NCBI GenBank assembly: GCA_000165345.1
Contig: CM000432.1
Coordinates: 1,024,001-1,088,000, forward strand
Direction: 5' to 3'
Length of the DNA: 64,000 bases
This document shows positions 21,424 through 61,584 of this stretch, piece by piece (position 1 is the stretch's first letter; the number at the start of each line of letters is the position of its first letter). Made by a program: the position numbers and the translations under genes. Under the pieces are notes generated by a model that was not told where the DNA came from, made no database searches, and worked only from the letters and a program-made list of their open reading frames with translations.

Positions 21424-24400
21424 ATGATACACGATGTTTTACTTTCTCTTACAGGGTTTGTTGGGGATAAGATTGAAGTGGACCCTGTAGAATTTACAAG
21501 TAACTCAATTTCTTTGTATAGTTATAAATATAGATTGAGACTCAAATCTAATATTGAGGAATATTTATCAGAAACTGAAAAATTATTAGTGGACAAGATT
21601 TTGCATATTTCTAGCAACTTCTATTCTGTTAATGAATTTGTTAAAAGAGTTCTAGGCTCTGTGTACAACAAGCATAGTAATTATAATTCAAATACAAACA
21701 CGAATCCAGCTTTTGGATCAAAATTTAACCAAGAAAAGAGCCATCAACTTCAAATTAGAGCAGATCTTAAGAAAAGATTACTCAGAATTAACCCTGTTGG
21801 ACTATATATACATGCAGTAGCAAAATGCATGCAGGAGTATATTCTTCGATTTCTTCAGAAGATTAATCAGTTAGAAAGAGAAGTTTTTGAAAATCCGAGT
21901 TTGCCTCTTACTTTTGTACTAACTTCAATAACAAAACCCTCCAGAGTTTTAGATAATTTTATGGCATTCATTGATGAGTGGTATAATCTTGCTCTTAATT
22001 CAAGAGTAGATTCTACATGTAAATTCTCGTTTTCAAATATGTTTATTACAATGGAAAAATTTGAAAATTTGTGTGAAATATATATAAGTATTCCATGTGG
22101 ATATATATTGGATTATTTCTATTTGGGAGTGTCTTCTGGAGATTTACTTCAGGAATCAGTGAGCAAAAACTTTCTATTGGTATGTAGTCGAATCTTTTGC
22201 TATCAAATGATAAATTGGATTATTTTAGGAAAGTTGGTTGACCCTTTTGAAGAGTTTATTGTCGGAAGGTTTTCCATTTCAGCTCCTACTAATTCATTAA
22301 ACTCCCAAAAGGATGCTAACTTTTCAAACTCATTTTCAATCTCTTCAAATGATAGGTAAGTTTGAGTTTTTGGTTAAATTGAAGAATAACCATTTTGGAA
22401 TCTTTTTAATTTTTACAAATCATTCTAATTAATCTTTAATATAGCTGTATTGAAGCCTTGGACTTGGATGAAAATTTATGTAAACTTTATCGTGAGGAGG
22501 AAATTTCCCATTGCGGGGTTTTTGAATGGGAGGGACTATTTTATACCAGATATGAATCCTTTACGAAGAAATTCTTTACAGTAAAGTTCCTTTACAAAAT
22601 CTTTGGTATTGGGAAAATTGTAAGTAAATCTTGTTCTTCCTTAGATAAGGAAGATTTTTATTTGTATTTATTCTCAAACAATCCTCATTTCCTTCTAATT
22701 TTTAGGTAAGACTTCTAAATAGATATGGGAATAGTAATATTAGAGATAGAATGAATGAAACAGGGTTTGAGAGTTACATTAATCAAATTTCAAACATTCT
22801 TAATGAATCGTTTCCGCATATTCAGTCCCAGTTGGAAGGGTTTCTTGAAAAATTCAGAAGGGAGATTTCTTTTATTATGTATGAATCAATAATTTTAAGA
22901 AGCCAAAACAACATAGCACACAAATTTGCATATAAAAATCTTTTTTCTCAAAACATCAAATTAATCCGAAATTTATATTTCCTTGGGTATTCTGACATTT
23001 TTCTTCAACTAGATAATTCCATTTTCTACAAAAATCTAAGCTATGATGACTCCCAAACACGTAATACTAACTTTACTGAACAGTCTGAATTCATCTCAAA
23101 CACTTGGAAAGAACTTTTGTCTTTATTCAAATTAGGCAATATTACCTCAAGTATTCATAATGATTTCTCAAACTCCAGAATTAACTTATGCTGCGACACA
23201 TTTGATCTTTTCAACTTTAACCTAAACGAGCTCGAATTAATTGACATGTTTAATTGCTCCCTTACAAATAACAATATACTCCTTTTTGGCGGGAAATCTG
23301 AAATGCATGCAGACCAATATTTGCATTCTGAAAATGAAAAATTAAAGAATGAAGGTGATGAGGGCCATGAAGATTATATTTCTGAAGATTTTGGTATTAC
23401 AGATTGCAACTTTGATTTTCCTTATGAAAATTTTCATGCAATTTCAATCTCTAGAGTCAAGTGGCCAATTCGTATCATAGATGGCTTTAATCATATATTA
23501 GAATGCGTTTCTTCTGTAAACGTAGTTTCATCTTTATTGTTCGCAGCATCTAATAGTATTCCATTTATTGGCGATGGAATTTGTACTTCTCAGGAGGATG
23601 GTTCAGGACACGATGGTGAGTTTTTAAGACTTACGTGGAGCTTTAGATTTAAGGATGAAAATAAACAAGTTATGGAATTCTGTATTAAGCTGTATTGGCA
23701 TACAAAACACTTGAGATCTTTGTTAAATACTGAAAAGGAGTATTCACTATTAAAAACCAATTTACTTGAAGTTCCCAATCCCTTTATCAATTTAATGGAA
23801 GGCGATTTATTCGCATATAGACTTAGGATTTTGTTCAAACAATCAAATATTTCAATATATATGGAGCCACTAAAAAATACCCTTCCTGGCTCAAATTCAC
23901 TCTTTGGAAGACCAACTCAGGTACTGAGTATTCAACATATTAATATTGATATTTGTTTACCTTTGCATACTTCGTCATGTTTTATTCATCTACTAAGACA
24001 TAATGATCACGCAAGATTCGAAAAGGAGAAAGAATTTAAGGTTTTTAAATGGTGTCATATAAGTTCCTCTAATAATTCAGATGTAATTTCTCAGCTAGCA
24101 AACTCTTGCAGCATGGGAGCGTCTTCAAGTACAAACTATAACTTTAATTTATTAAAAAACGTCTCGTTAAATTCTTATCTAAGTGGAATAAGCTTTGATC
24201 ATCATATATTTAGATTAAGAATTATCCAGAAATTTGATTGGCCGTTACCACTTTTATTCACAAAAAAGAATATGGAACATTACTATAATCTATTTGATTT
24301 TTATTGGCTATTTTTCAGAACATATAATGGGCTTGAAAGGATTTGGAGAGAGGCTTTCAATCTAAGATATGGAAATAGAAGAGGGGCATTCACTTCATTT

Positions 24401-25390: not shown

Positions 25391-25860
25391 TTACAAATAT
25401 ATTGAAAGTGTATAAAATATTCTAAACATTTATTTAAATTGTTTTTTTCTATTTTTTAATCCTCTATTTGAAATGTCAAACTTGTAAAAATTATTTTCAA
25501 GAGTTTCCCGCCCAAACACATACCGGTGTATGGTACCGAAAAAAAATAATAATTGAGGGGAAATAAGATATGTAAATTGTGAATAAAAGTATATATTAAA
25601 AATAAGTTTAGGTATAGGAAAAAAGAGGAATCAATCAGAGAAAAAAAATTATTTAAATAAAAATTTAAATAATTGAACAAGAGTGAAGAATTGTAAGTGC
25701 TGGGAGTTACATCCGGATTATCAATTTACTCATTCTTTTCTTTAAATATTGCAAAAAAAGAAAAAGGGAGAGCCAAAAATATCAGTCTTTGAAAGTCTTT
25801 TTCATATAAAATTCTTTTGATTTTATTTTTGTGTATGTGTATTTGCAACTTTTAATTGAA

Positions 25861-35129: not shown

Positions 35130-35148
35130 GGCGGGAAATGTGCCCGCC
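35130..35148. promoter_or_regulatory. palindromic double E2F-type site GGCGGGAAA-TGTG-CCCGCC in the ORC1 (-) / Hook (+) divergent intergenic region
   Basis: GGCGGGAAA is the reverse complement of the canonical E2F consensus TTTCCCGCC. An inverted CCCGCC copy lies 4 nt downstream. A further GAGGGGCGAAAAG lies at 34706-34718, nearer ORC1. Confidence 0.55.
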
Positions 35149-52702: not shown

Positions 52703-55504
52703 CTAAAGCCTCTTAACCTTTTTCTGGCCAACATTTTTATCAGTTTCAAGCTCTTGGGATCTTCTATTTACACTTCCTTCTTCACAGCTGTTTTCGTTTT
52801 CTTTCCCTAAAATGTGAATTTTTTTTGCTCCATTAGAATCTGTGGAACAAACTTGTGTTGGAGTGCTGATTTGGTTTCTTACCAAAGTAATTATATTTGC
52901 AAGAGACGATGAAGATGATGAGGATGAGGAAGAAGAGGAAGATGATGAAGAATCTTTTAATAACTTACTTTCATCTCGGAATTTAAATGAGTCATTCCCT
53001 GGTATATATTTCGGCTTTGAGCTTGCAAACCTTTCAGGATAATAAGCTCTAAGTGAAATGATTGGTCCATTACTTTTGTTTGATTCGTTTTTATTTTGAG
53101 ATTCTTGAGAATCTTTTCTGTTAATAAGAATACTACTGCTGCTCCTGCTATTATTACTATTCCCACTTACGAACCCAATTTTTGACGTAAGATCAGACGA
53201 AGAGTTAAAGCCTGCCCCGTTGGCACTGCTTGAAGAATATAAATTCTGTCCAGATTCAATGTTAGTTGCATTTTTTGCATCACCATATATATGTAGTTTT
53301 CCAGTATTGGGGACACTTTGAGAATTTTTGGGTAAATTTGAGTCTGGAGCATTTTCATCAGAGTCAAAAAGTGGAGAAGATTGAATTACTAAATCTGTCT
53401 CTTTAATTAGGTTGACCGAATTATTGTAATCAATATTACCTTTATAATTAACATTTTGAGAATTATTATTGTTTATGTTTGAGCTTAATTCATTATTAGG
53501 AAGGCTTTGTTCTTCATTCTCCAGTATTTCAATGATACTATTTTCGTCATCTGATGATTGACTGTATTGTGGGCCGCTAAATACAGAGCTCATGCTATTA
53601 TTATGGTCCAAGTTATTTCTTTGAACAATGGTTTCTCTTGGGATTCTATAATTTGAAATATTTAAATTGGTTTGGATACTTTGTCTGCCGGTGTTATTAA
53701 TTCTAGTATTTTCATGTAAATTACTATTTCTACCTCTCCTTTGGTTATTATTGTTATTACTGCTCGATCTTATAATTTCCGAACTGCTCCTACTTCTAGA
53801 GGTGCCAAAAATTGAATTAGAGGCTGAATCTTCGTGAAAAGCATATCTAGTCAAATCAACATATTCCGAAGAAAATGCTGAAGATATATTAATAGCACCC
53901 TCGAGCATTTCTAATATACTAGTTCCTGTGGCTGATCTTTCACTCCTTGAATTATCTCTTCTGGAGACTCCACTTCGAGTGCGTCTATCAGTCCTTGTTC
54001 TTCTACTTCTGCTGGATCTACTTGTCCTACTTGATTGTGCATTTGAATTAGTTCTGCCTCTATTTCTATTTGGACTGCTCCCTTCACTCGACTCAGCTTC
54101 TTCAAATATTACATTCAAATTTGACCTGCCTCTTCTCCGATTACTATTTCTATTAGAAGTTAATATCCTTCTTCTTTCTGAGAGAGCAATGTTATCATTC
54201 AATGATGATGTTGAAGAGTCGCTATCTACTGAAACTACTCGAATTGTAGTTGTACTTATTGACAAATTTCTTGTTGTTAGGTTTGGCTCGGTATTATGAC
54301 TTGATGGCCTTCTCTCTCTATTGGATCTTAAAGAACTATTACTCCTTGTAGATCTTGTGTTTGTACCTGATGATCTGGTTGAACGACCAGTTCTAGAAGA
54401 TCTTGTTGTCATTCTATGTTCAAAATTAACTTCTGAGCCTAAATCTAAAACGAAATCGTGGTCATCATCTACAATAAAATCTGTATCTAGGTTGCTGTTA
54501 TTTGCTCTGCTTGTATTGTTTCTTCTATTGTTTGTTCTCCTTCTTCTACCTCTTATGCACCTTGGACAAAACCACTCTCCACTTGGAACACTATCTAAAG
54601 GGGGATCCAAACAATATGTATGGTAACCCCTATCACACCTGTCACAAAGCAATAATACTTCTTCATGATCATTTAATCTGCAAACTTCACATGCAAAATC
54701 AGCAAATGGATCTTCGTCCATTTCGTTACAGTTCAATTTCTTCATTTCTACAGGAATAACCATTACTGGTATAGACAATTCACCTGGAATAACATTAAAA
54801 GCATTAATGTGATCAAATTCTCTTTTACATAAGGGGCACTGAGTAGCAACATCAGACCATTGCTTAATACAGACAAAACAGAAAATGTGTTTGCATACAC
54901 TCAATCCTCCTATTAATAACTCTTCCTTTTTTTCTTTGCAGAGAGTTTCATTAGCAGTTTCTACATTTAAAAGAGAACAAGTATTATCTTCAAGCTTTTT
55001 TCCATAATTCAAGGCTTTAATATCATTGTTATTTGATTCACCAGTACTTTCTTGCTCCTCTCCTTTATTTTTACAATTCAATAAATCTTGAAGGGTCATT
55101 AAGCATATTGCACACTCAATGGTATTGGCTTCTGATAAATTATTTTCTATAGGAGTTTCAGACTTAGTTTGATTAATACTTTCTTTATCATCTATATTTA
55201 TACTTGCTCTTTTTGAACTTAAACCTTTTGGGGTTTCTAAGCCATAATTTTCACTCCTTAAGGCACTATTTTGCCTACAGTTGTATACAACTCTTCTTAA
55301 AGAAGAGTGAGTCTTTCCAGAAATGTTTTCAGGGGACATTAAAATAGATTGACTAATATTTATATTTTCATTCTGGTTCTCAACACCATGTATACTATTC
55401 CTTTCAATGTCTTCATTGTTAACATCATATTCAAAAAGACTTTCTATTTCATTTGAATTCAGTAAAACATCGTCAATCACATCAAAGTCATCCATCATTA
55501 GCAT
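52703..55504 (-). CDS. RING-finger plus PHD-finger protein (PHRF1-like architecture) with very long S/R/N-rich low-complexity regions
   Basis: The RING motif is CAICLMTL...CKHIFCFVCIKQWSDVATQCPLCKREF. The PHD motif is CEVCRLNDHEEVLLLCDRCDRGYHTYCLDPPLDSVPSGEWFCPRCI. R/S-rich (RSxR) tracts follow, plus an S17 run encoded by GAWGAW repeats at 52907-52950. Confidence 0.85.
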   Translation of the reverse strand: MLMMDDFDVIDDVLLNSNEIESLFEYDVNNEDIERNSIHGVENQNENINISQSILMSPENISGKTHSSLRRVVYNCRQNSALRSENYGLETPKGLSSKRASINIDDKESINQTKSETPIENNLSEANTIECAICLMTLQDLLNCKNKGEEQESTGESNNNDIKALNYGKKLEDNTCSLLNVETANETLCKEKKEELLIGGLSVCKHIFCFVCIKQWSDVATQCPLCKREFDHINAFNVIPGELSIPVMVIPVEMKKLNCNEMDEDPFADFACEVCRLNDHEEVLLLCDRCDRGYHTYCLDPPLDSVPSGEWFCPRCIRGRRRRTNNRRNNTSRANNSNLDTDFIVDDDHDFVLDLGSEVNFEHRMTTRSSRTGRSTRSSGTNTRSTRSNSSLRSNRERRPSSHNTEPNLTTRNLSISTTTIRVVSVDSDSSTSSLNDNIALSERRRILTSNRNSNRRRGRSNLNVIFEEAESSEGSSPNRNRGRTNSNAQSSRTSRSSRSRRTRTDRRTRSGVSRRDNSRSERSATGTSILEMLEGAINISSAFSSEYVDLTRYAFHEDSASNSIFGTSRSRSSSEIIRSSSNNNNNQRRGRNSNLHENTRINNTGRQSIQTNLNISNYRIPRETIVQRNNLDHNNSMSSVFSGPQYSQSSDDENSIIEILENEEQSLPNNELSSNINNNNSQNVNYKGNIDYNNSVNLIKETDLVIQSSPLFDSDENAPDSNLPKNSQSVPNTGKLHIYGDAKNATNIESGQNLYSSSSANGAGFNSSSDLTSKIGFVSGNSNNSRSSSSILINRKDSQESQNKNESNKSNGPIISLRAYYPERFASSKPKYIPGNDSFKFRDESKLLKDSSSSSSSSSSSSSSSSLANIITLVRNQISTPTQVCSTDSNGAKKIHILGKENENSCEEGSVNRRSQELETDKNVGQKKVKRL
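52907..52950 (-). repeat. (GAWGAW)n repeat encoding an S17 tract in the RING-PHD protein
   Basis: gatgaagatgatgaggatgaggaagaagaggaagatgatgaa on the + strand translates as poly-Ser on the - strand. The mirrored + strand ORF (poly-D/E) is an artefact. Confidence 0.9.
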
Positions 55505-55788
55505 ATAAACAATCTTACTTATTCTTAATCCTTCAGTCCGAGTAATAACAAAATTATCTTACACATCTACATGCAGCCCATAAAATAAATAAATACTTCA
55601 ACCTTTTCAAATTAATTTATATACTGCTATAGCTAAACCACTTTGTAATTCTAAACAACACACCCACACTAATTAACTCATAAGAATGGTTGATTTTTCC
55701 TCGTCTTATCTTTAATGTTTTTGAGATTTATTTACTTTGAAATTTGTTTAGTTTTTTTTTTCTTTCCCATGTTGAGGATGCTAAAGCA

Positions 55789-55802
55789 TTTTCCCGCCAA
55801 AA
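55789..55802. promoter_or_regulatory. TTTTCCCGCCAAAA, an E2F-consensus-like site, in the divergent promoter of the RING-PHD gene (-) and the OTU gene (+)
   Basis: Direct reading of the sequence. Confidence 0.5.
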
Positions 55803-56026
55803 CTTGGCTTACTGAATTTGTAAATGTCAAAAAATTGGAATTGACAAAAGGATCAGACAAATTCAGATTTAGTCGAATTTTTAATTTTTAGGGACTAAAA
55901 TATCAGAAAACCTGTTATAATTTTTGATTAGACGTATCTATTAGTTTAGATTGAAGTTAATGTTTCAAATACTATTTAAAAGGAACTGGTAATTAATTAA
56001 TAAATATTAAAATTCGTAATAAAAAA

Positions 56027-57106
56027 ATGGACTCAGACTCTCAGGAAAGTAAGCCAAGCAGAAGAAAGGTTCTTCAGAGGCAAAATCAGGAAGTTAAGGC
56101 TTTAAAAGAGCAATGGAAGAAAGCCCTTGCTAGCTGTAATAAAAAGGGATCTAAAAAGGAGCTTGATAAAGAATATCAATCAAAGATGGAGGCACTACAA
56201 CTATCTCATAAGATGGAACTAATGAAACTTTCTGGTGAAGGCAATTTAGAAAATGAAGAAGACTCTGTGGAGCAATCTTCTGAAAATAATAGGAATATTG
56301 ATGACTCCAATACAAATAAACTCAGTTTAGTGGAAAAACTTCAAACTATGGATGAAGTACCATCATTATATTCCAATGCAACCTTTCAAGTGACTAAGAG
56401 TGAAAAGCGAAAAAAGAAAAGGCAAAAAGAACTTGAACAGAAGTATATGAAAAGTCTGGAAGAATGCGCACTAAACAGTAAGTTTATTTGAAAAGCATTT
56501 ATCTAAACAATTTTCAATACTTATTTCTATTACTTCCAATGAAAAATAGATGATAGAAAAGGCGAAATTGAACTTGAAGTAATAAATAAAAAGCTTAAGG
56601 AAAATAATCTGAAAATTTTTAATATTAGTGCAGATGGAAACTGTCTTTTTGGGTAAGTTTATGACTTCCTTATCCTATAATTTAATATACACTATTTTAG
56701 CTCTATTAAACACCAACTAGAAATAAAAAAAAAAGGATTATACTCAATTAAAGAACTGAGATGCATTGCAGTTGACTATATTGAATCAAATAGAAAGACT
56801 ATGGAACCTTTTGTTCTAGCCTCAGTTGAGAATACAGATATAACATTTGAAGAATACTGCGATAATATAAGAAATACCAATGAATGGGGAGGTGAGGTTG
56901 AATTAGTTGCTCTTTCTAACTCTCTGGAAGTTCCAATTACAGTTATTAGAGCATTAAATCACAGAAATGAATCATATGGTGAGCAATTCTATGAAGAATA
57001 TGAAGATGATGAAGAAAATAGCGTTAAAGAAAATACTTTATATATAGTTTACCATATTCATCTTTTCGCAAATGGACCCCACTATAACTCAACTATTAGT
57101 ATTTAA
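56027..57106 (+). CDS. OTU-domain deubiquitinase (OTUD6/Otu2-like: N-terminal coiled-coil plus OTU) in three exons at 56027..56477, 56550..56652 and 56701..57106, about 319 aa
   Basis: The catalytic Cys box DGNCLFG is encoded by a 103-nt middle exon missed by the ORF track (DRKGEIELEVINKKLKENNLKIFNISADGNCLFG). The downstream exon carries WGGEVELVALS and the His box LYIVYHIHLFANGPHYNS. Junctions are AAC A|GTAAGT ... AAAAATAG|AT (phase 1) and TTT GG|GTAAGT ... ATTTTAG|C (phase 2), both frame-consistent. Confidence 0.8.
56478..56549 (+). other. predicted intron 1 of the OTU gene (72 nt)
   Basis: GTAAGTTTATTTG ... GAAAAATAG. Confidence 0.6.
56653..56700 (+). other. predicted intron 2 of the OTU gene (48 nt)
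   Basis: GTAAGTTTATGAC ... CACTATTTTAG. Confidence 0.6.
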
Positions 57107-57393
57107 TTTAAGATTAGCTTTCAATGCCTTGTTATAATTTTTTTCATTTATTTTGCATGCATTTTTCTCTACCACTGCTTTCCCCCCCAAATTGATTCTT
57201 TATTCATCTTTCTTATGAAATGTATCAAAAAAAAAATTTGCATCAGGCATTATTAAGTAATCAAAATCTATATGTTAACAAGTGAAGAAATTTATCTAAT
57301 TTAATATTCTCTATTTCCTTTCATATTATTTCTAATATTTTTAATTGCACTAATTTGTTTCAAAAGCCTTTAAAGTAATTTCTGATTATTAGT

Positions 57394-57407
57394 TTCCCGC
57401 CAAAACT
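57394..57407. promoter_or_regulatory. TTTCCCGCCAAAAC about 145 nt upstream of the ABC transporter ATG
   Basis: This is the same motif class as 55789, 25504 (TTTCCCGCCC), 50740 (ATTCCCGCCAAC), 61736 (CACCCGCCAACAT) and 17225 (TTGCCCGCCCGAA). Confidence 0.5.
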
Positions 57408-57549
57408 ATAATATTTGCATTTTCAAAAGCTATTAAAATAATCAATGATATCTCATCAATTCAAATTCAAAATTTACACTACATTTACATTTTGATAACA
57501 CATTTTTGAGTTATTGAGAAGTTGAATTATATTCTATGTCTATGATAGA

Positions 57550-60500
57550 ATGAAACAAAGTTGTAATTGTTTTTATGAATATTCTTTCTTTTCATGGATT
57601 AATGACTATATTAAAGGCACTAAGGGGTATAAGGCAATACTAGAAAGAAATAATAATATCTTTGAACCAAGCTTCTCATTATCATTCTCAAAAAACTCTG
57701 ATTTAAATGAAGTTGTTTCGGATTTTCAGAAAAATTTACTATTTCAATATAAATACAGATTAGATGAAAATGAAAAAAGCTTCAATATCGGCCAAGGGCT
57801 TATAAAAACATTTTGGAATGAATTCATTTTTTGTTTGGCTCTCAAAGCATTAATGGTAGTTTTGACAACCTACCTAAACATTACCTTGAAAAGTTTTATG
57901 GAAGTAGTTAATCCATCGAGCAAACTAATACAATGTTTGATTTTAATTGGTTTACAAACTTTTAAGATATTTCTAGACTCTCATACCAACTTTTTAATAG
58001 CAAAAATGTCATTAAATATTCAAACATTTATAATTAGAGCTGCATTTGAAGATCTATCTAGAACTAATTTTACTCGTACTTTGACCAAGCGAACACAAAA
58101 TGAATTAAAAAATACACCAAACATTCACAACTTAATATTTGGTGATTTAAATTCTTTGGAATCTTTGATGCAAGCATTTATTGAGCTTATTATATCACCA
58201 ATTAAAATTATCGGGGTTTGGGTATTGCTTCAAAGGAATATGGGTTTTTCTGCAAATTTATCAGTATTGGCCTATATAATATTATACTTGATAAGTCTAA
58301 CTCTACAAGTAGTTGGCTCATTATACAAAATAAAGTTTATGAAATTCAGAGATGTAAGAATTCTTAAATGCCATGAATATCTTTCTTCTTTACCAATCAT
58401 CCGCAATCTCTTTTGGGAAGAAGTTGTGTACGAAGATTTAATGTCTGTAAGGAAATTGGAGGTAAAGGCTAACCTAACTAGGTTTCTATATTTAATGGCA
58501 GGGACCTTTTTGGAGTATAATGCTCTTTCCATAGCAAAATATATTTTATTTTTTTCATTTATTTACAAATCTTATACTCAATTCTCAAATTCTATTTCTT
58601 TTGGAGCTACAGTTACTTCAAGAATTGCTACCCTGCATGCACTAAATATGCTTACAAGTCCAACTAGGAATATTGCTTCAAGTATTGTAGAAGGGATTAT
58701 ATCTTTCAAAAGAATTATTGATTTTTTTGAAAGAAATTCTTATAGCCTATTAATTAATGAAAGTACTGGGAAAAATCAGATTAATTCAATTGAAAGGAAG
58801 AAATGCTGTAATAGAAAGGATTTGAAAAAATTCGATCAAGATGAATCGGTGCTATTAAATTTTGAATATTCTAGACCACTTGAATTCGAGGATTTTGAGA
58901 AAAAATACTTAATTAATATGTCAAATTTCAACCACTCAATGATAAAATCCAATATTAAAAACTTTAAACTAAAAAATAATGAATTATATATACTTTCAGG
59001 TAAATCAGGTTCAGGTAAAACACTCTTAATCAATCAAATCTTAGATCAAATTTATACAATGGAAGGCCAATACGTTAATATTTTTCATTCTTCTCAGAAT
59101 TTTTGGTTTCCAAAAGGTACAATTCGATCTGTAATACTGTTTGGGAGAGAATACGATAAAAATATTTACGAAAGAGTAATAAAAGCATGTTCACTTGATA
59201 TGGACTTTGCCATGTGGAAAGACAAAGATTTAAGGCAATTGGATGAGTCTGACCAAACTCTTAGCAATGGTCAAAAGTCAAGAATTAACTTGGCTAGAGC
59301 TCTTTATTACTTTCTTTATATACAGAAAACAAATCAGGAAAATAATAAATCTCTGATAATATTAGATGATGTCTTTTCAACATTAGATATCCAAACTTCA
59401 ATTGAGATATTTGAAAGTTTATTTAAAATAGATGGTGGTATAGTTTCTGAAAAATCTTGTATAGTCACAATTAGCATTGACCATATTTCAATATTGGCCT
59501 CTAAAGTTAAGTTTCCAGAGGAAAAAGCTGTTAATATTGTTATTATGGATAAAGGAACAATATCATATAGCGGCTTGCTCCAAACCTACTTAAATGAATT
59601 TCCCTATTTGAAAAAAGATCACTATCTTGATTTAAATGATGAATACAACTTTAATGGAAATAACAAAGAAAAAAAATATTATTTGGTTGAGGAACTGCAT
59701 AATGAAATAGCTATAGATAGTAAAATACCACTTTACGCAAATAATCATGAAGAAACATCAACATTTCAAACAACTAACATCCACTTTTATTCTAAATATA
59801 TCTACTATTTTGAATATATTGGAAGAATTTACTTTTTAATTTTTTTATTGGTATGCATTTTAAAGATAGGAGTAACGAAATCTATGGATATTTATTTAGC
59901 CAGATATTCATCTTTAGGATCGCCAAAAATATTCATTATTCATTATTCTGTTCTATTAATTGTTAAGTTAATATTAGAGTGCTTTACATTTATCTCAGAA
60001 GCTTTGTTATCAGCAAAATCTTCTTCAAAAATCCACAACAATTACCTAATTTCATTACTGAAAGCTCCATTAAATTTTTTCTCATATACACCTATTTCAA
60101 GAGTTCTAAACAGATTCAACTTGGATTTACTTGTATTAGATGACATATTGGTTCGAAAGATTGTTGGTGTAATGATTCGAATATTTGAACCATTTATACA
60201 TTTATCTTTGGTATTTCTTACTAACCCTATTATTATTCCATTCTCAATTGCGCATATAGTTTTCATTGTTATTTCATATGGAATGCCTTTATTTCACATT
60301 TACAAAGCAACTCAAATGGTTATTTTATCAATTTGTTCAAATTTAAACAATACTTTTTCAGAAACAATACAAGGATGGGAAATTATTAGAGACTTTAAAA
60401 ATGATGTCTTATATAGAGAAATTTTATGTTCTAATTTGTTAGACATAATTAAAATGAGAATGATGCAAATTTCAGTAATTAAATGGGCATCATTTAGAAT

Positions 60501-61584
60501 ACAATTTTTTTCTGGACCCTTGGTTATTTTTTTATATTTGGCTTATTTACTATATTGTATTTTATTTCAAACTAAAAGTTCGGGAATCTTCAATTTGGCT
60601 GGAATAGAACTGGGTTATGTAATTTATTTCTACATTACTTTTACTGAAACTTTGAATTTAATATTTATTAAAATTTCCTCTTTAGAAAAAGATATGTGTT
60701 CACTAGAAAGAGTAATAGAATACTCAAATAATACATCTAATGAAAATAAACTTATAGAAGACTTGAAGCAGGAAGAAGCCATTTTAGATGAGAAAGTAAA
60801 TAGTGATTCTAATTTAAAACTAAAATTTACAAACGTAGAGTTATCATATCAAGTTTCAGATTTTACCAGTAATTACAATTACTTGGAATTTAAAGCAATT
60901 AAAGACTTTAATCTTGAGCTGAGCCCAAATGAACATATTGGAATTATTGGTAGAACAGGATGTGGAAAGTCAACTTTAATTAAAGGTATTTTAGGGTCAT
61001 TAATTCCTTCTTCTGGCACAATAAAATTTGGGGAAATTGAAATTTATAACTTATCAAGGAATAAAAGGAGAGAAATAATTGGTATAGTAACTCAAACACC
61101 TCTAAAGGTAAATAATTGGTCAATTAGAAAATATTTGGATCCATTTTTTGAACATAATCAAGATACAATTTTACAAGTATTAAAATTTACTGGATTCTAC
61201 AAAATAATTGCTAATAGAATGCAATTTGACGAAAATCTGGATCTAGTTAGATTATCAGACTATAACCAAGAAAATTGCATCTCTTTGACAGATTTTCATT
61301 TAAAATATTTGAACTTTGTCAGGCTATTATTGAATAGGAAGAAATACAAAATCATTTTATTAGACGAGCCTACAATAGAAGCACAGATTGAATTGGGAAA
61401 TGAAGCTCTGAGTCATTGCTATGAGAACTCAAAGCTTGTTCCTATTGAAGAGCTTATCAGAGATTACTTCCAGCATTGCTGTGTTGTAATCGTTTCGCAT
61501 AATTTTAATGCTTTAAAATATTGCAATAGAATTATTAATCTTAGCTATAAATGCAGGTTAGATATAGAAACAAAAAGTAATTAA
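57550..61584 (+). CDS. full-length ABC transporter (TMD-NBD-TMD-NBD), ABCC/MRP-like, with a degenerate second signature motif
   Basis: NBD1 has Walker A SGKSGSGKTLL, signature LSNGQKSRINLARALY and Walker B LIILDDVFSTLD. NBD2 has Walker A GIIGRTGCGKSTL and Walker B ILLDEPT, but lacks a canonical LSGGQ. Two hydrophobic multi-helix blocks precede each NBD. Confidence 0.9.
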   Translation: MKQSCNCFYEYSFFSWINDYIKGTKGYKAILERNNNIFEPSFSLSFSKNSDLNEVVSDFQKNLLFQYKYRLDENEKSFNIGQGLIKTFWNEFIFCLALKALMVVLTTYLNITLKSFMEVVNPSSKLIQCLILIGLQTFKIFLDSHTNFLIAKMSLNIQTFIIRAAFEDLSRTNFTRTLTKRTQNELKNTPNIHNLIFGDLNSLESLMQAFIELIISPIKIIGVWVLLQRNMGFSANLSVLAYIILYLISLTLQVVGSLYKIKFMKFRDVRILKCHEYLSSLPIIRNLFWEEVVYEDLMSVRKLEVKANLTRFLYLMAGTFLEYNALSIAKYILFFSFIYKSYTQFSNSISFGATVTSRIATLHALNMLTSPTRNIASSIVEGIISFKRIIDFFERNSYSLLINESTGKNQINSIERKKCCNRKDLKKFDQDESVLLNFEYSRPLEFEDFEKKYLINMSNFNHSMIKSNIKNFKLKNNELYILSGKSGSGKTLLINQILDQIYTMEGQYVNIFHSSQNFWFPKGTIRSVILFGREYDKNIYERVIKACSLDMDFAMWKDKDLRQLDESDQTLSNGQKSRINLARALYYFLYIQKTNQENNKSLIILDDVFSTLDIQTSIEIFESLFKIDGGIVSEKSCIVTISIDHISILASKVKFPEEKAVNIVIMDKGTISYSGLLQTYLNEFPYLKKDHYLDLNDEYNFNGNNKEKKYYLVEELHNEIAIDSKIPLYANNHEETSTFQTTNIHFYSKYIYYFEYIGRIYFLIFLLVCILKIGVTKSMDIYLARYSSLGSPKIFIIHYSVLLIVKLILECFTFISEALLSAKSSSKIHNNYLISLLKAPLNFFSYTPISRVLNRFNLDLLVLDDILVRKIVGVMIRIFEPFIHLSLVFLTNPIIIPFSIAHIVFIVISYGMPLFHIYKATQMVILSICSNLNNTFSETIQGWEIIRDFKNDVLYREILCSNLLDIIKMRMMQISVIKWASFRIQFFSGPLVIFLYLAYLLYCILFQTKSSGIFNLAGIELGYVIYFYITFTETLNLIFIKISSLEKDMCSLERVIEYSNNTSNENKLIEDLKQEEAILDEKVNSDSNLKLKFTNVELSYQVSDFTSNYNYLEFKAIKDFNLELSPNEHIGIIGRTGCGKSTLIKGILGSLIPSSGTIKFGEIEIYNLSRNKRREIIGIVTQTPLKVNNWSIRKYLDPFFEHNQDTILQVLKFTGFYKIIANRMQFDENLDLVRLSDYNQENCISLTDFHLKYLNFVRLLLNRKKYKIILLDEPTIEAQIELGNEALSHCYENSKLVPIEELIRDYFQHCCVVIVSHNFNALKYCNRIINLSYKCRLDIETKSN

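Follow-up and report, generated by a model that had tools for sequence, protein, structure and literature searches.

The yeast deubiquitinase Otu2 relies on a catalytic triad of Cys178, His300 and Asn302, binds the 40S ribosomal subunit via its N-terminal domain and deubiquitinates the ribosomal protein eS7 (PMC10175282; cf. PMC7900223). Its chain is laid out as a hairpin (residues 14-69), a helix alpha3 (84-94), a long helix alpha4, a helix alpha5 (150-166) and an OTU domain (167-305) (PMC10175282). The Drosophila protein OTUD6 has been found to deubiquitinate RPS7/eS7 on free 40S subunits (PMC11316749), and enzymes of the OTUD6B type often display little activity on polyubiquitin in vitro (PMC10038098). 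In Cryptosporidium parvum, the only OTU protein characterised biochemically is CpOTU (Ju et al. 2014).

In this work we describe a region of C. parvum chromosome 4 that lies at positions 56027-57106 of a 64,000-nucleotide stretch of DNA, the whole of which is referred to here as the window; coordinates are those of the window unless an accession is given. The region very probably represents one ordinary three-exon gene, cgd4_4420 (CPATCC_001974), which codes for an OTU deubiquitinase of the Otu2/OTUD6 type and for which a function on eS7 and the 40S subunit is expected by orthology.

Results

Gene structure of cgd4_4420

Two open reading frames are called in this part of the window, one at 56027..56491 (154 aa, K/E-rich) and the other at 56801..57106 (101 aa, ending in ...GPHYNSTISI). 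The initial annotation had proposed that these frames are joined via a middle exon at 56550..56652, with GTAAGT donors in both introns and intron phases of 1 and then 2. The donors were located at 56478 and 56653, with AG acceptors that end at 56549 and 56700, and the phases were recovered as proposed; the coordinates, the reading frame and the deposited annotation all agree on the joined gene, which consists of the following parts:

56027-56477, + strand: exon 1, 451 nt, coding for aa 1-150 and the first base of codon 151; K/E-rich helical N-terminal region
56478-56549, + strand: intron 1, 72 nt, phase 1, GTAAGT...TAG, 21% GC
56550-56652, + strand: exon 2, 103 nt, coding for aa 151-184 and two bases of codon 185; helix alpha5 and the Cys box NISADGNCLFG (Asp179, Cys182)
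56653-56700, + strand: intron 2, 48 nt, phase 2, GTAAGT...TAG, 23% GC
56701-57106, + strand: exon 3, 406 nt including the TAA stop, coding for aa 185-319; remainder of the OTU domain, with NEWGGEVEL and the His box HYNS (His312, Asn314)

Assembly of the three exons by script (451 + 103 + 406 nt) gave a coding sequence of 960 nt and a product of 319 aa, the length that had been claimed for it. Exon 3 begins at 56701, which is 100 nt upstream of the ATG-defined start of the second open reading frame at 56801. The GC content is 28% for the window, and 21-23% for the introns versus 32% for the exons; the value reported for introns genome-wide is 22% (Isaza et al. 2015, PMC4637869). Spliceosomal introns of Cryptosporidium are recognized as short, AT-rich GT-AG introns whose positions are conserved in orthologues, and this is what is found here, with transcript support coming from the literature and from what the published annotations themselves state (Isaza et al. 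2015; Baptista et al. 2022).

When the GT..AG combinations across 56027-57106 were enumerated, the frame also stayed open in 193 of the 1,696 two-intron combinations, plus 19 single-intron ones, and an open frame was therefore dropped as a statistical test of the splice model. The annotated model is the longest open one in this enumeration. It is singled out because, in addition to being the longest, it has GTAAGT donors in the models of all seven species compared below, yields a full match to the Pfam OTU profile, contains conserved introns and a conserved 103-nt exon, and is identical to the deposited annotation. An exact-match search for the junction of exons 2 and 3 in the JGI metagenome contigs, a collection in which C. 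parvum cDNA is not expected, returned none.

Conservation of the introns in Cryptosporidium

The comparison of introns covered seven species, with C. parvum set beside C. meleagridis, C. canis, C. felis, C. xiaoi, C. ryanae and C. andersoni, a gastric species; for each of the latter six, the annotated orthologue was mapped onto its own genomic locus. Two introns were found at the same positions and in the same phases, each with GTAAGT as its first six bases, in 7/7 species, and the middle exon is exactly 103 nt long in every one of them. The lengths of the introns drift (59-83 nt for intron 1 and 48-93 nt for intron 2) and are mostly not multiples of three across species, and intron GC is lower than exon GC in every species compared. 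Relative to C. parvum, exon 2 has changed mostly at the third position of codons, the substitutions numbering 41, 35 and 93 at positions 1, 2 and 3, respectively.

Two of the deposited orthologues differ at a splice site. In the C. canis model (P0002; JAPCXC010000114.1, gene 1001-2078), the acceptor of intron 2 is placed 9 nt downstream of the homologous CAG, so that three conserved residues after CLFG are lost; with the upstream acceptor, the frame is retained and 'SIR' is regained, compared with 'SIK' in the other species, and the choice made in that model is probably a small annotation error. In the C. tyzzeri protein TRY52043.1 (P0011), the sequence around intron 1 reads ALNS-KKGE versus ALNNDRKGE, which fits donor and acceptor sites that lie 4 and 7 nt, respectively, downstream of those used in C. 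parvum and C. hominis.

The boundaries of intron 1 in C. parvum could be drawn in the same alternative way, with the donor GTTTAT at 56482 and the acceptor at 56556, giving a protein of 318 aa that contains ...ALNSKKGE.... The frame remains open in the C. parvum sequence too, and the junction is the one used in the deposited C. tyzzeri protein. However, GTTTAT is the weaker donor, whereas the annotated intron 1 starts with GTAAGT in all seven mapped species, and the shifted boundaries would drop the D and then the R/K that follow LN(x) and are conserved in C. canis, C. felis, C. xiaoi and C. ryanae. The curated C. parvum and C. hominis models also take the GTAAGT site. We consider the shifted boundaries highly unlikely, and the GTAAGT-bounded intron 1 is used throughout; the shift would leave the catalytic site untouched.

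Annotation history and transcript support

Public protein records already contain an identical sequence of 319 aa under QOY42338.1 (CPATCC_001974), WRK31686.1 and UniRef100_F0X5Q7 ('Cgd4_4420 protein'), together with orthologues of 317-319 aa from C. hominis, C. tyzzeri and C. meleagridis. At the nucleotide level, window 53027-60106 (7,080 bases) and positions 1081243-1088322 of CP044419.1 (chromosome 4 of C. parvum IOWA-ATCC) were compared and show 0 mismatches, and the gene annotated in that record spans exactly window 56027-57106.

In the 2004 annotation of C. parvum Iowa II, this cgd4 gene was split into two records of 154 and 141 aa. The first, EAK87406.1/XP_625457.1, is a hypothetical protein identical to the open reading frame 56027..56491. 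The second, EAK87447.1/XP_625458.1 (cgd4_4430), is described as 'OTU like cysteine protease, partial' and lacks a start codon; it starts with FNIHYFS..., which means that its translation reads through the tail of intron 2. C. parvum Iowa was subsequently reannotated on the basis of full-length cDNA and RNA-seq data (Isaza et al. 2015, PMC4637869), and in Supplementary Table S1 of that work cgd4_4430 is one of the earlier coding regions listed as being, in fact, exons of a neighbouring gene. As for the IOWA-ATCC annotation, Baptista et al. 2022 (PMC8744675) state that its introns are 100% supported by RNA-seq.

The three-exon structure is thus already known, the misannotation having been corrected in the 2015 paper and in the 2020 annotation, and the two-fragment appearance of the gene is an artefact of intron-blind ORF calling, with the identical artefact in the 2004 annotation. 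The initial annotation had described the catalytic exon as missed by ORF finding. This is accurate for the prokaryote-style ORF track and for the 2004 Iowa II annotation; the novelty that it implied does not survive the 2015 correction, the protein in GenBank and UniProt, and the IOWA-ATCC span. A full-text literature search for 'cgd4_4420' returned no paper, and the gene turns up solely in a supplement.

The superseded split models (window 56027-56491 and 56680-57106; XP_625457.1 and XP_625458.1) are still found in GenBank/RefSeq. Models split in the same way exist for C. meleagridis UKMEL1 and, in part, for chipmunk genotype I, and they fall into the same 90% cluster as the full-length protein.

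A further question is whether splicing could be regulated, such that retention of an intron or skipping of the 103-nt exon switches the deubiquitinase off. Both introns contain in-frame stops, so that retention of intron 1 would truncate the product at 154 aa, and skipping of exon 2 shifts the frame; some alternative acceptors after such skipping keep the frame and yield a product without the Cys box. In addition, the unspliced 154-aa open reading frame is found on a contig of 1,386 nt, which comes from the assembly of a public sequencing run, although this contig may be genomic DNA. On the other hand, evidence of an alternative isoform is absent, the introns are small and have consensus sites, and only three putative cases of alternative splicing genome-wide are mentioned in the portions of Baptista et al. 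2022 (PMC8744675) used in this work. A splicing switch therefore seems exceedingly improbable, and the annotated transcript, with all three exons joined, is the one considered further.

OTU domain and catalytic residues

The spliced 319-aa protein matches the Pfam OTU profile PF02338 from position 2 to position 128 out of 128, over aa 178-313, with a score of 89 bits (cut-off 23.3) and E=4.7e-25; the initial annotation had named this search as a check on its splice model, and the outcome is in its favour. The C-terminal open reading frame alone matches only positions 55-128 of the profile, with 59 bits. We take PF02338, a family of OTU cysteine proteases, to be the equivalent of MEROPS family C85.

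Both catalytic boxes are present. The first, D179-G-N-C182-L-F, fits the pattern D-G-x-C-[LM]-[FY] and is part of the motif NISADGNCLFG, which had been assigned to the middle exon and is indeed found in the spliced product; the second, H312-Y-N314-S, is located near the C-terminus. Two protein alignments, of nine Cryptosporidium sequences and of eight diverse OTUD6-like sequences, show Asp179, Cys182 and His312 to be invariant, and the triad Cys182/His312/Asn314 aligns with C178/H300/N302 of yeast Otu2. The product of cgd4_4420 is, as far as its sequence tells, a complete OTU protease that carries an Otu2-like N-terminal helical domain, with enzymatic activity predicted.

Kinship to Otu2 and OTUD6

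Among solved structures, the closest by sequence is the OTU domain of yeast Otu2 (7pl7, E=2.5e-14). Full-length Otu2 on the 40S subunit (8c83_x) was matched with E=1.1e-13, query aa 11-315 being aligned with residues 12-303 of the chain, and the N-terminal part of this alignment runs through K/E-rich, compositionally biased sequence (bias 16.1). The next OTU subfamily in the same PDB sequence search is OTUD3, with E=2.7e-5.

Word-indexed protein searches returned only Cryptosporidium sequences and two other hits, whereas an exhaustive HMMER search of representatives gave 578 matches at E<=1e-10, many of which are about 300 aa long and aligned end to end. Ten of the best non-Cryptosporidium matches were looked up; five of these are named, and three of the five names point to Otu2/OTUD6, namely 'OTU domain-containing protein 6', 'deubiquitinase OTUD6B-like' and, for a Neospora protein, 'Similar to S. 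cerevisiae YHL013c', YHL013C being the OTU2 gene of S. cerevisiae. A search of bacterial and archaeal contigs with the profile also retrieved OTU domains with 31-35% identity in metagenome-assembled genomes of Francisellaceae, Chlamydiae, Rickettsiales, a gammaproteobacterium and Archangium (L002-L006), which are presumably bacterial OTU effectors unrelated to cgd4_4420.

We give next to no credence to a reading with two separate genes, in which 56027..56491 would code for a coiled-coil protein of 154 aa and the OTU fragment, truncated at its N-terminus, would be a gene of its own. Each open reading frame does exist by itself, and the pair has been deposited in this form for Iowa II (C. parvum), for UKMEL1 (C. 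meleagridis) and, in part, for the chipmunk genotype. However, the downstream fragment has no catalytic Cys and covers only Pfam positions 55-128, and its 141-aa model lacks a start codon, carries the label partial and translates the end of intron 2 ('FNIHYFS'). Moreover, the intron positions and the 103-nt exon are kept in seven species, eukaryotic homologues some 300 aa long match the fused product from end to end, and the two models were merged in the published reannotation (Isaza et al. 2015).

Predicted structure of the three-exon product

The AlphaFold2 model of the spliced protein was built from the nine-sequence Cryptosporidium alignment and is of moderate confidence (mean pLDDT 68.9), with values <50 at aa 178-180, adjoining the catalytic Cys. 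In this model, a hairpin of two helices (aa 12-36 and 42-68) is followed by a linker predicted to be disordered (70-122), by two further helices (124-149 and 151-168) and by an OTU domain (171-318). A Foldseek comparison of the model with the PDB placed Otu2 first (8c83_x, E=7.7e-12; 7pl7, TM score 0.81 normalised to the target), with OTUD3, OTUD1 and further OTU domains ranking after it. In total, 58 PDB chains were matched at E<=0.001, and the best 50 of these 58 are nearly all OTU domains, from Otu2, OTUD3, OTUD1, OTUD5/DUBA, OTUD2 and viral and Wolbachia OTU proteins.

A kinship to OTUD6B and yeast Otu2 had been suggested in the initial annotation. Otu2 is the best PDB match both by sequence and by fold, and three of the five named top matches are of the Otu2/OTUD6 type. 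Judged from these sequence searches and the predicted fold, the cgd4_4420 product appears to be closer to Otu2/OTUD6 than to other OTU subfamilies.

Flanking region

The neighbourhood of the OTU gene contains the following features:

52703-55504, - strand: gene of a 933-aa protein, the upstream neighbour
55790..55798, + strand: E2F-like 9-mer TTTCCCGCC (GGCGGGAAA on the other strand), about 230 nt upstream of the ATG of the OTU gene
57550-61584, + strand: gene of a 1344-aa ABC transporter with ABC_membrane and ABC_tran domains

A count of 9-mers found five copies of TTTCCCGCC in the window, versus 0.02 expected from shuffles:

23288-23296, - strand: copy of the 9-mer
25504-25512, + strand: copy of the 9-mer
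35130-35138, - strand: copy of the 9-mer
55790-55798, + strand: copy of the 9-mer, listed above
57393-57401, + strand: copy of the 9-mer

Each of the intergenic regions that flank the OTU gene thus contains one copy. The copy at 55790..55798 is within the 522-nt intergenic region between the divergent gene of the 933-aa protein and the OTU gene, and the copy at 57393-57401 is located about 150 nt upstream of the ABC-transporter ORF (57550). We take this 9-mer to resemble the E2F-like motif reported for upstream regions in Cryptosporidium, and the copy at 55790..55798 may possibly be a promoter element.

On visual inspection, the 933-aa protein, for which the annotation records no Pfam hit, contains stretches rich in Cys and His that resemble RING and PHD fingers, and long Ser/Asn/Arg-rich tracts of low complexity, including a run of 18 Ser. 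C. meleagridis, C. canis, C. felis and C. xiaoi share the order of 933-aa gene, OTU gene and ABC transporter, and in C. andersoni the upstream neighbour of the OTU gene is a gene for a WD40 protein instead. Rfam and tRNA scans of the 64-kb window (1-64000) found no Rfam family at the gathering score and no tRNA gene.

Discussion

The function of cgd4_4420 is likely to be the removal of mono-ubiquitin from eS7 on the free 40S subunit, as judged from orthology. If the parasite protein works as its described relatives do, its helical N-terminal domain would bind free 40S subunits at their intersubunit face, and the mono-ubiquitin that Not4 places on eS7 would be removed by the OTU domain. Such deubiquitination of eS7 would reset 40S subunits between recycling and re-initiation, a role that has been demonstrated for yeast Otu2 and Drosophila OTUD6. 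With a complete Otu2/OTUD6 orthologue predicted in Cryptosporidium, a conserved eS7 ubiquitination cycle would be a reasonable expectation in this parasite.

It is tempting to see more than this in the lineage-specific features of the protein, that is, in the disordered, acidic and Asn-rich linker that takes the place of alpha3 and in the acidic insertion before the His box. In principle, the '40S reset' by Otu2/OTUD6 on eS7 might operate with these features in this highly reduced parasite, and the enzyme could then be a parasite-specific handle on global translation; or splicing of the 103-nt catalytic exon might be regulated by stage. We regard this as very doubtful. The data point to neither, and show nothing beyond ordinary sequence divergence.

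On the practical side, intron-blind ORF tracks and the 2004 Iowa II records split cgd4_4420 and lose its active site, and those who use XP_625457.1 and XP_625458.1 would miscount the deubiquitinases of C. parvum. Beyond such quality control, the importance of the correction is slight.

The question arises whether cgd4_4420 could be the gene of the CpOTU protein characterised by Ju et al. 2014 (XM_001388292.1). The two share the organism and the OTU family, and CpOTU has an Asp/Cys/His triad and isopeptidase activity. This identity was rejected, since both the accession and the architecture differ: CpOTU is described as otubain-like and cannot act without its C-terminal extension of 217 aa, whereas in the cgd4_4420 product the His box is followed by 7 more residues and the extension is N-terminal.

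Besides Otu2, the closest known systems are animal OTUD6/OTUD6B (Drosophila OTUD6, human OTUD6B), the apicomplexan TgOTUD6B and the YHL013c-like protein of Neospora. Proteins named OTUD6, OTUD6B or YHL013c-like are among the best non-Cryptosporidium matches looked up, with 24-37% identity; the Neospora homologue is longer (375 aa) and has extra N-terminal and linker sequence compared with the Cryptosporidium protein. Yeast Otu2 itself is only about 21-27% identical to the cgd4_4420 product. It has a helix alpha3, whereas the linker of the Cryptosporidium protein (aa 70-122), acidic and rich in Asn, is predicted to be disordered, with no confident helix there, and, unlike Otu2, the Cryptosporidium protein contains a genus-variable acidic insertion, EEYEDDEENSVKE, before the last strands. 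Yet the two proteins are of comparable length (319 versus 307 aa), and both consist of a hairpin, a linker, a long helix, a helix alpha5 and a C-terminal OTU domain.
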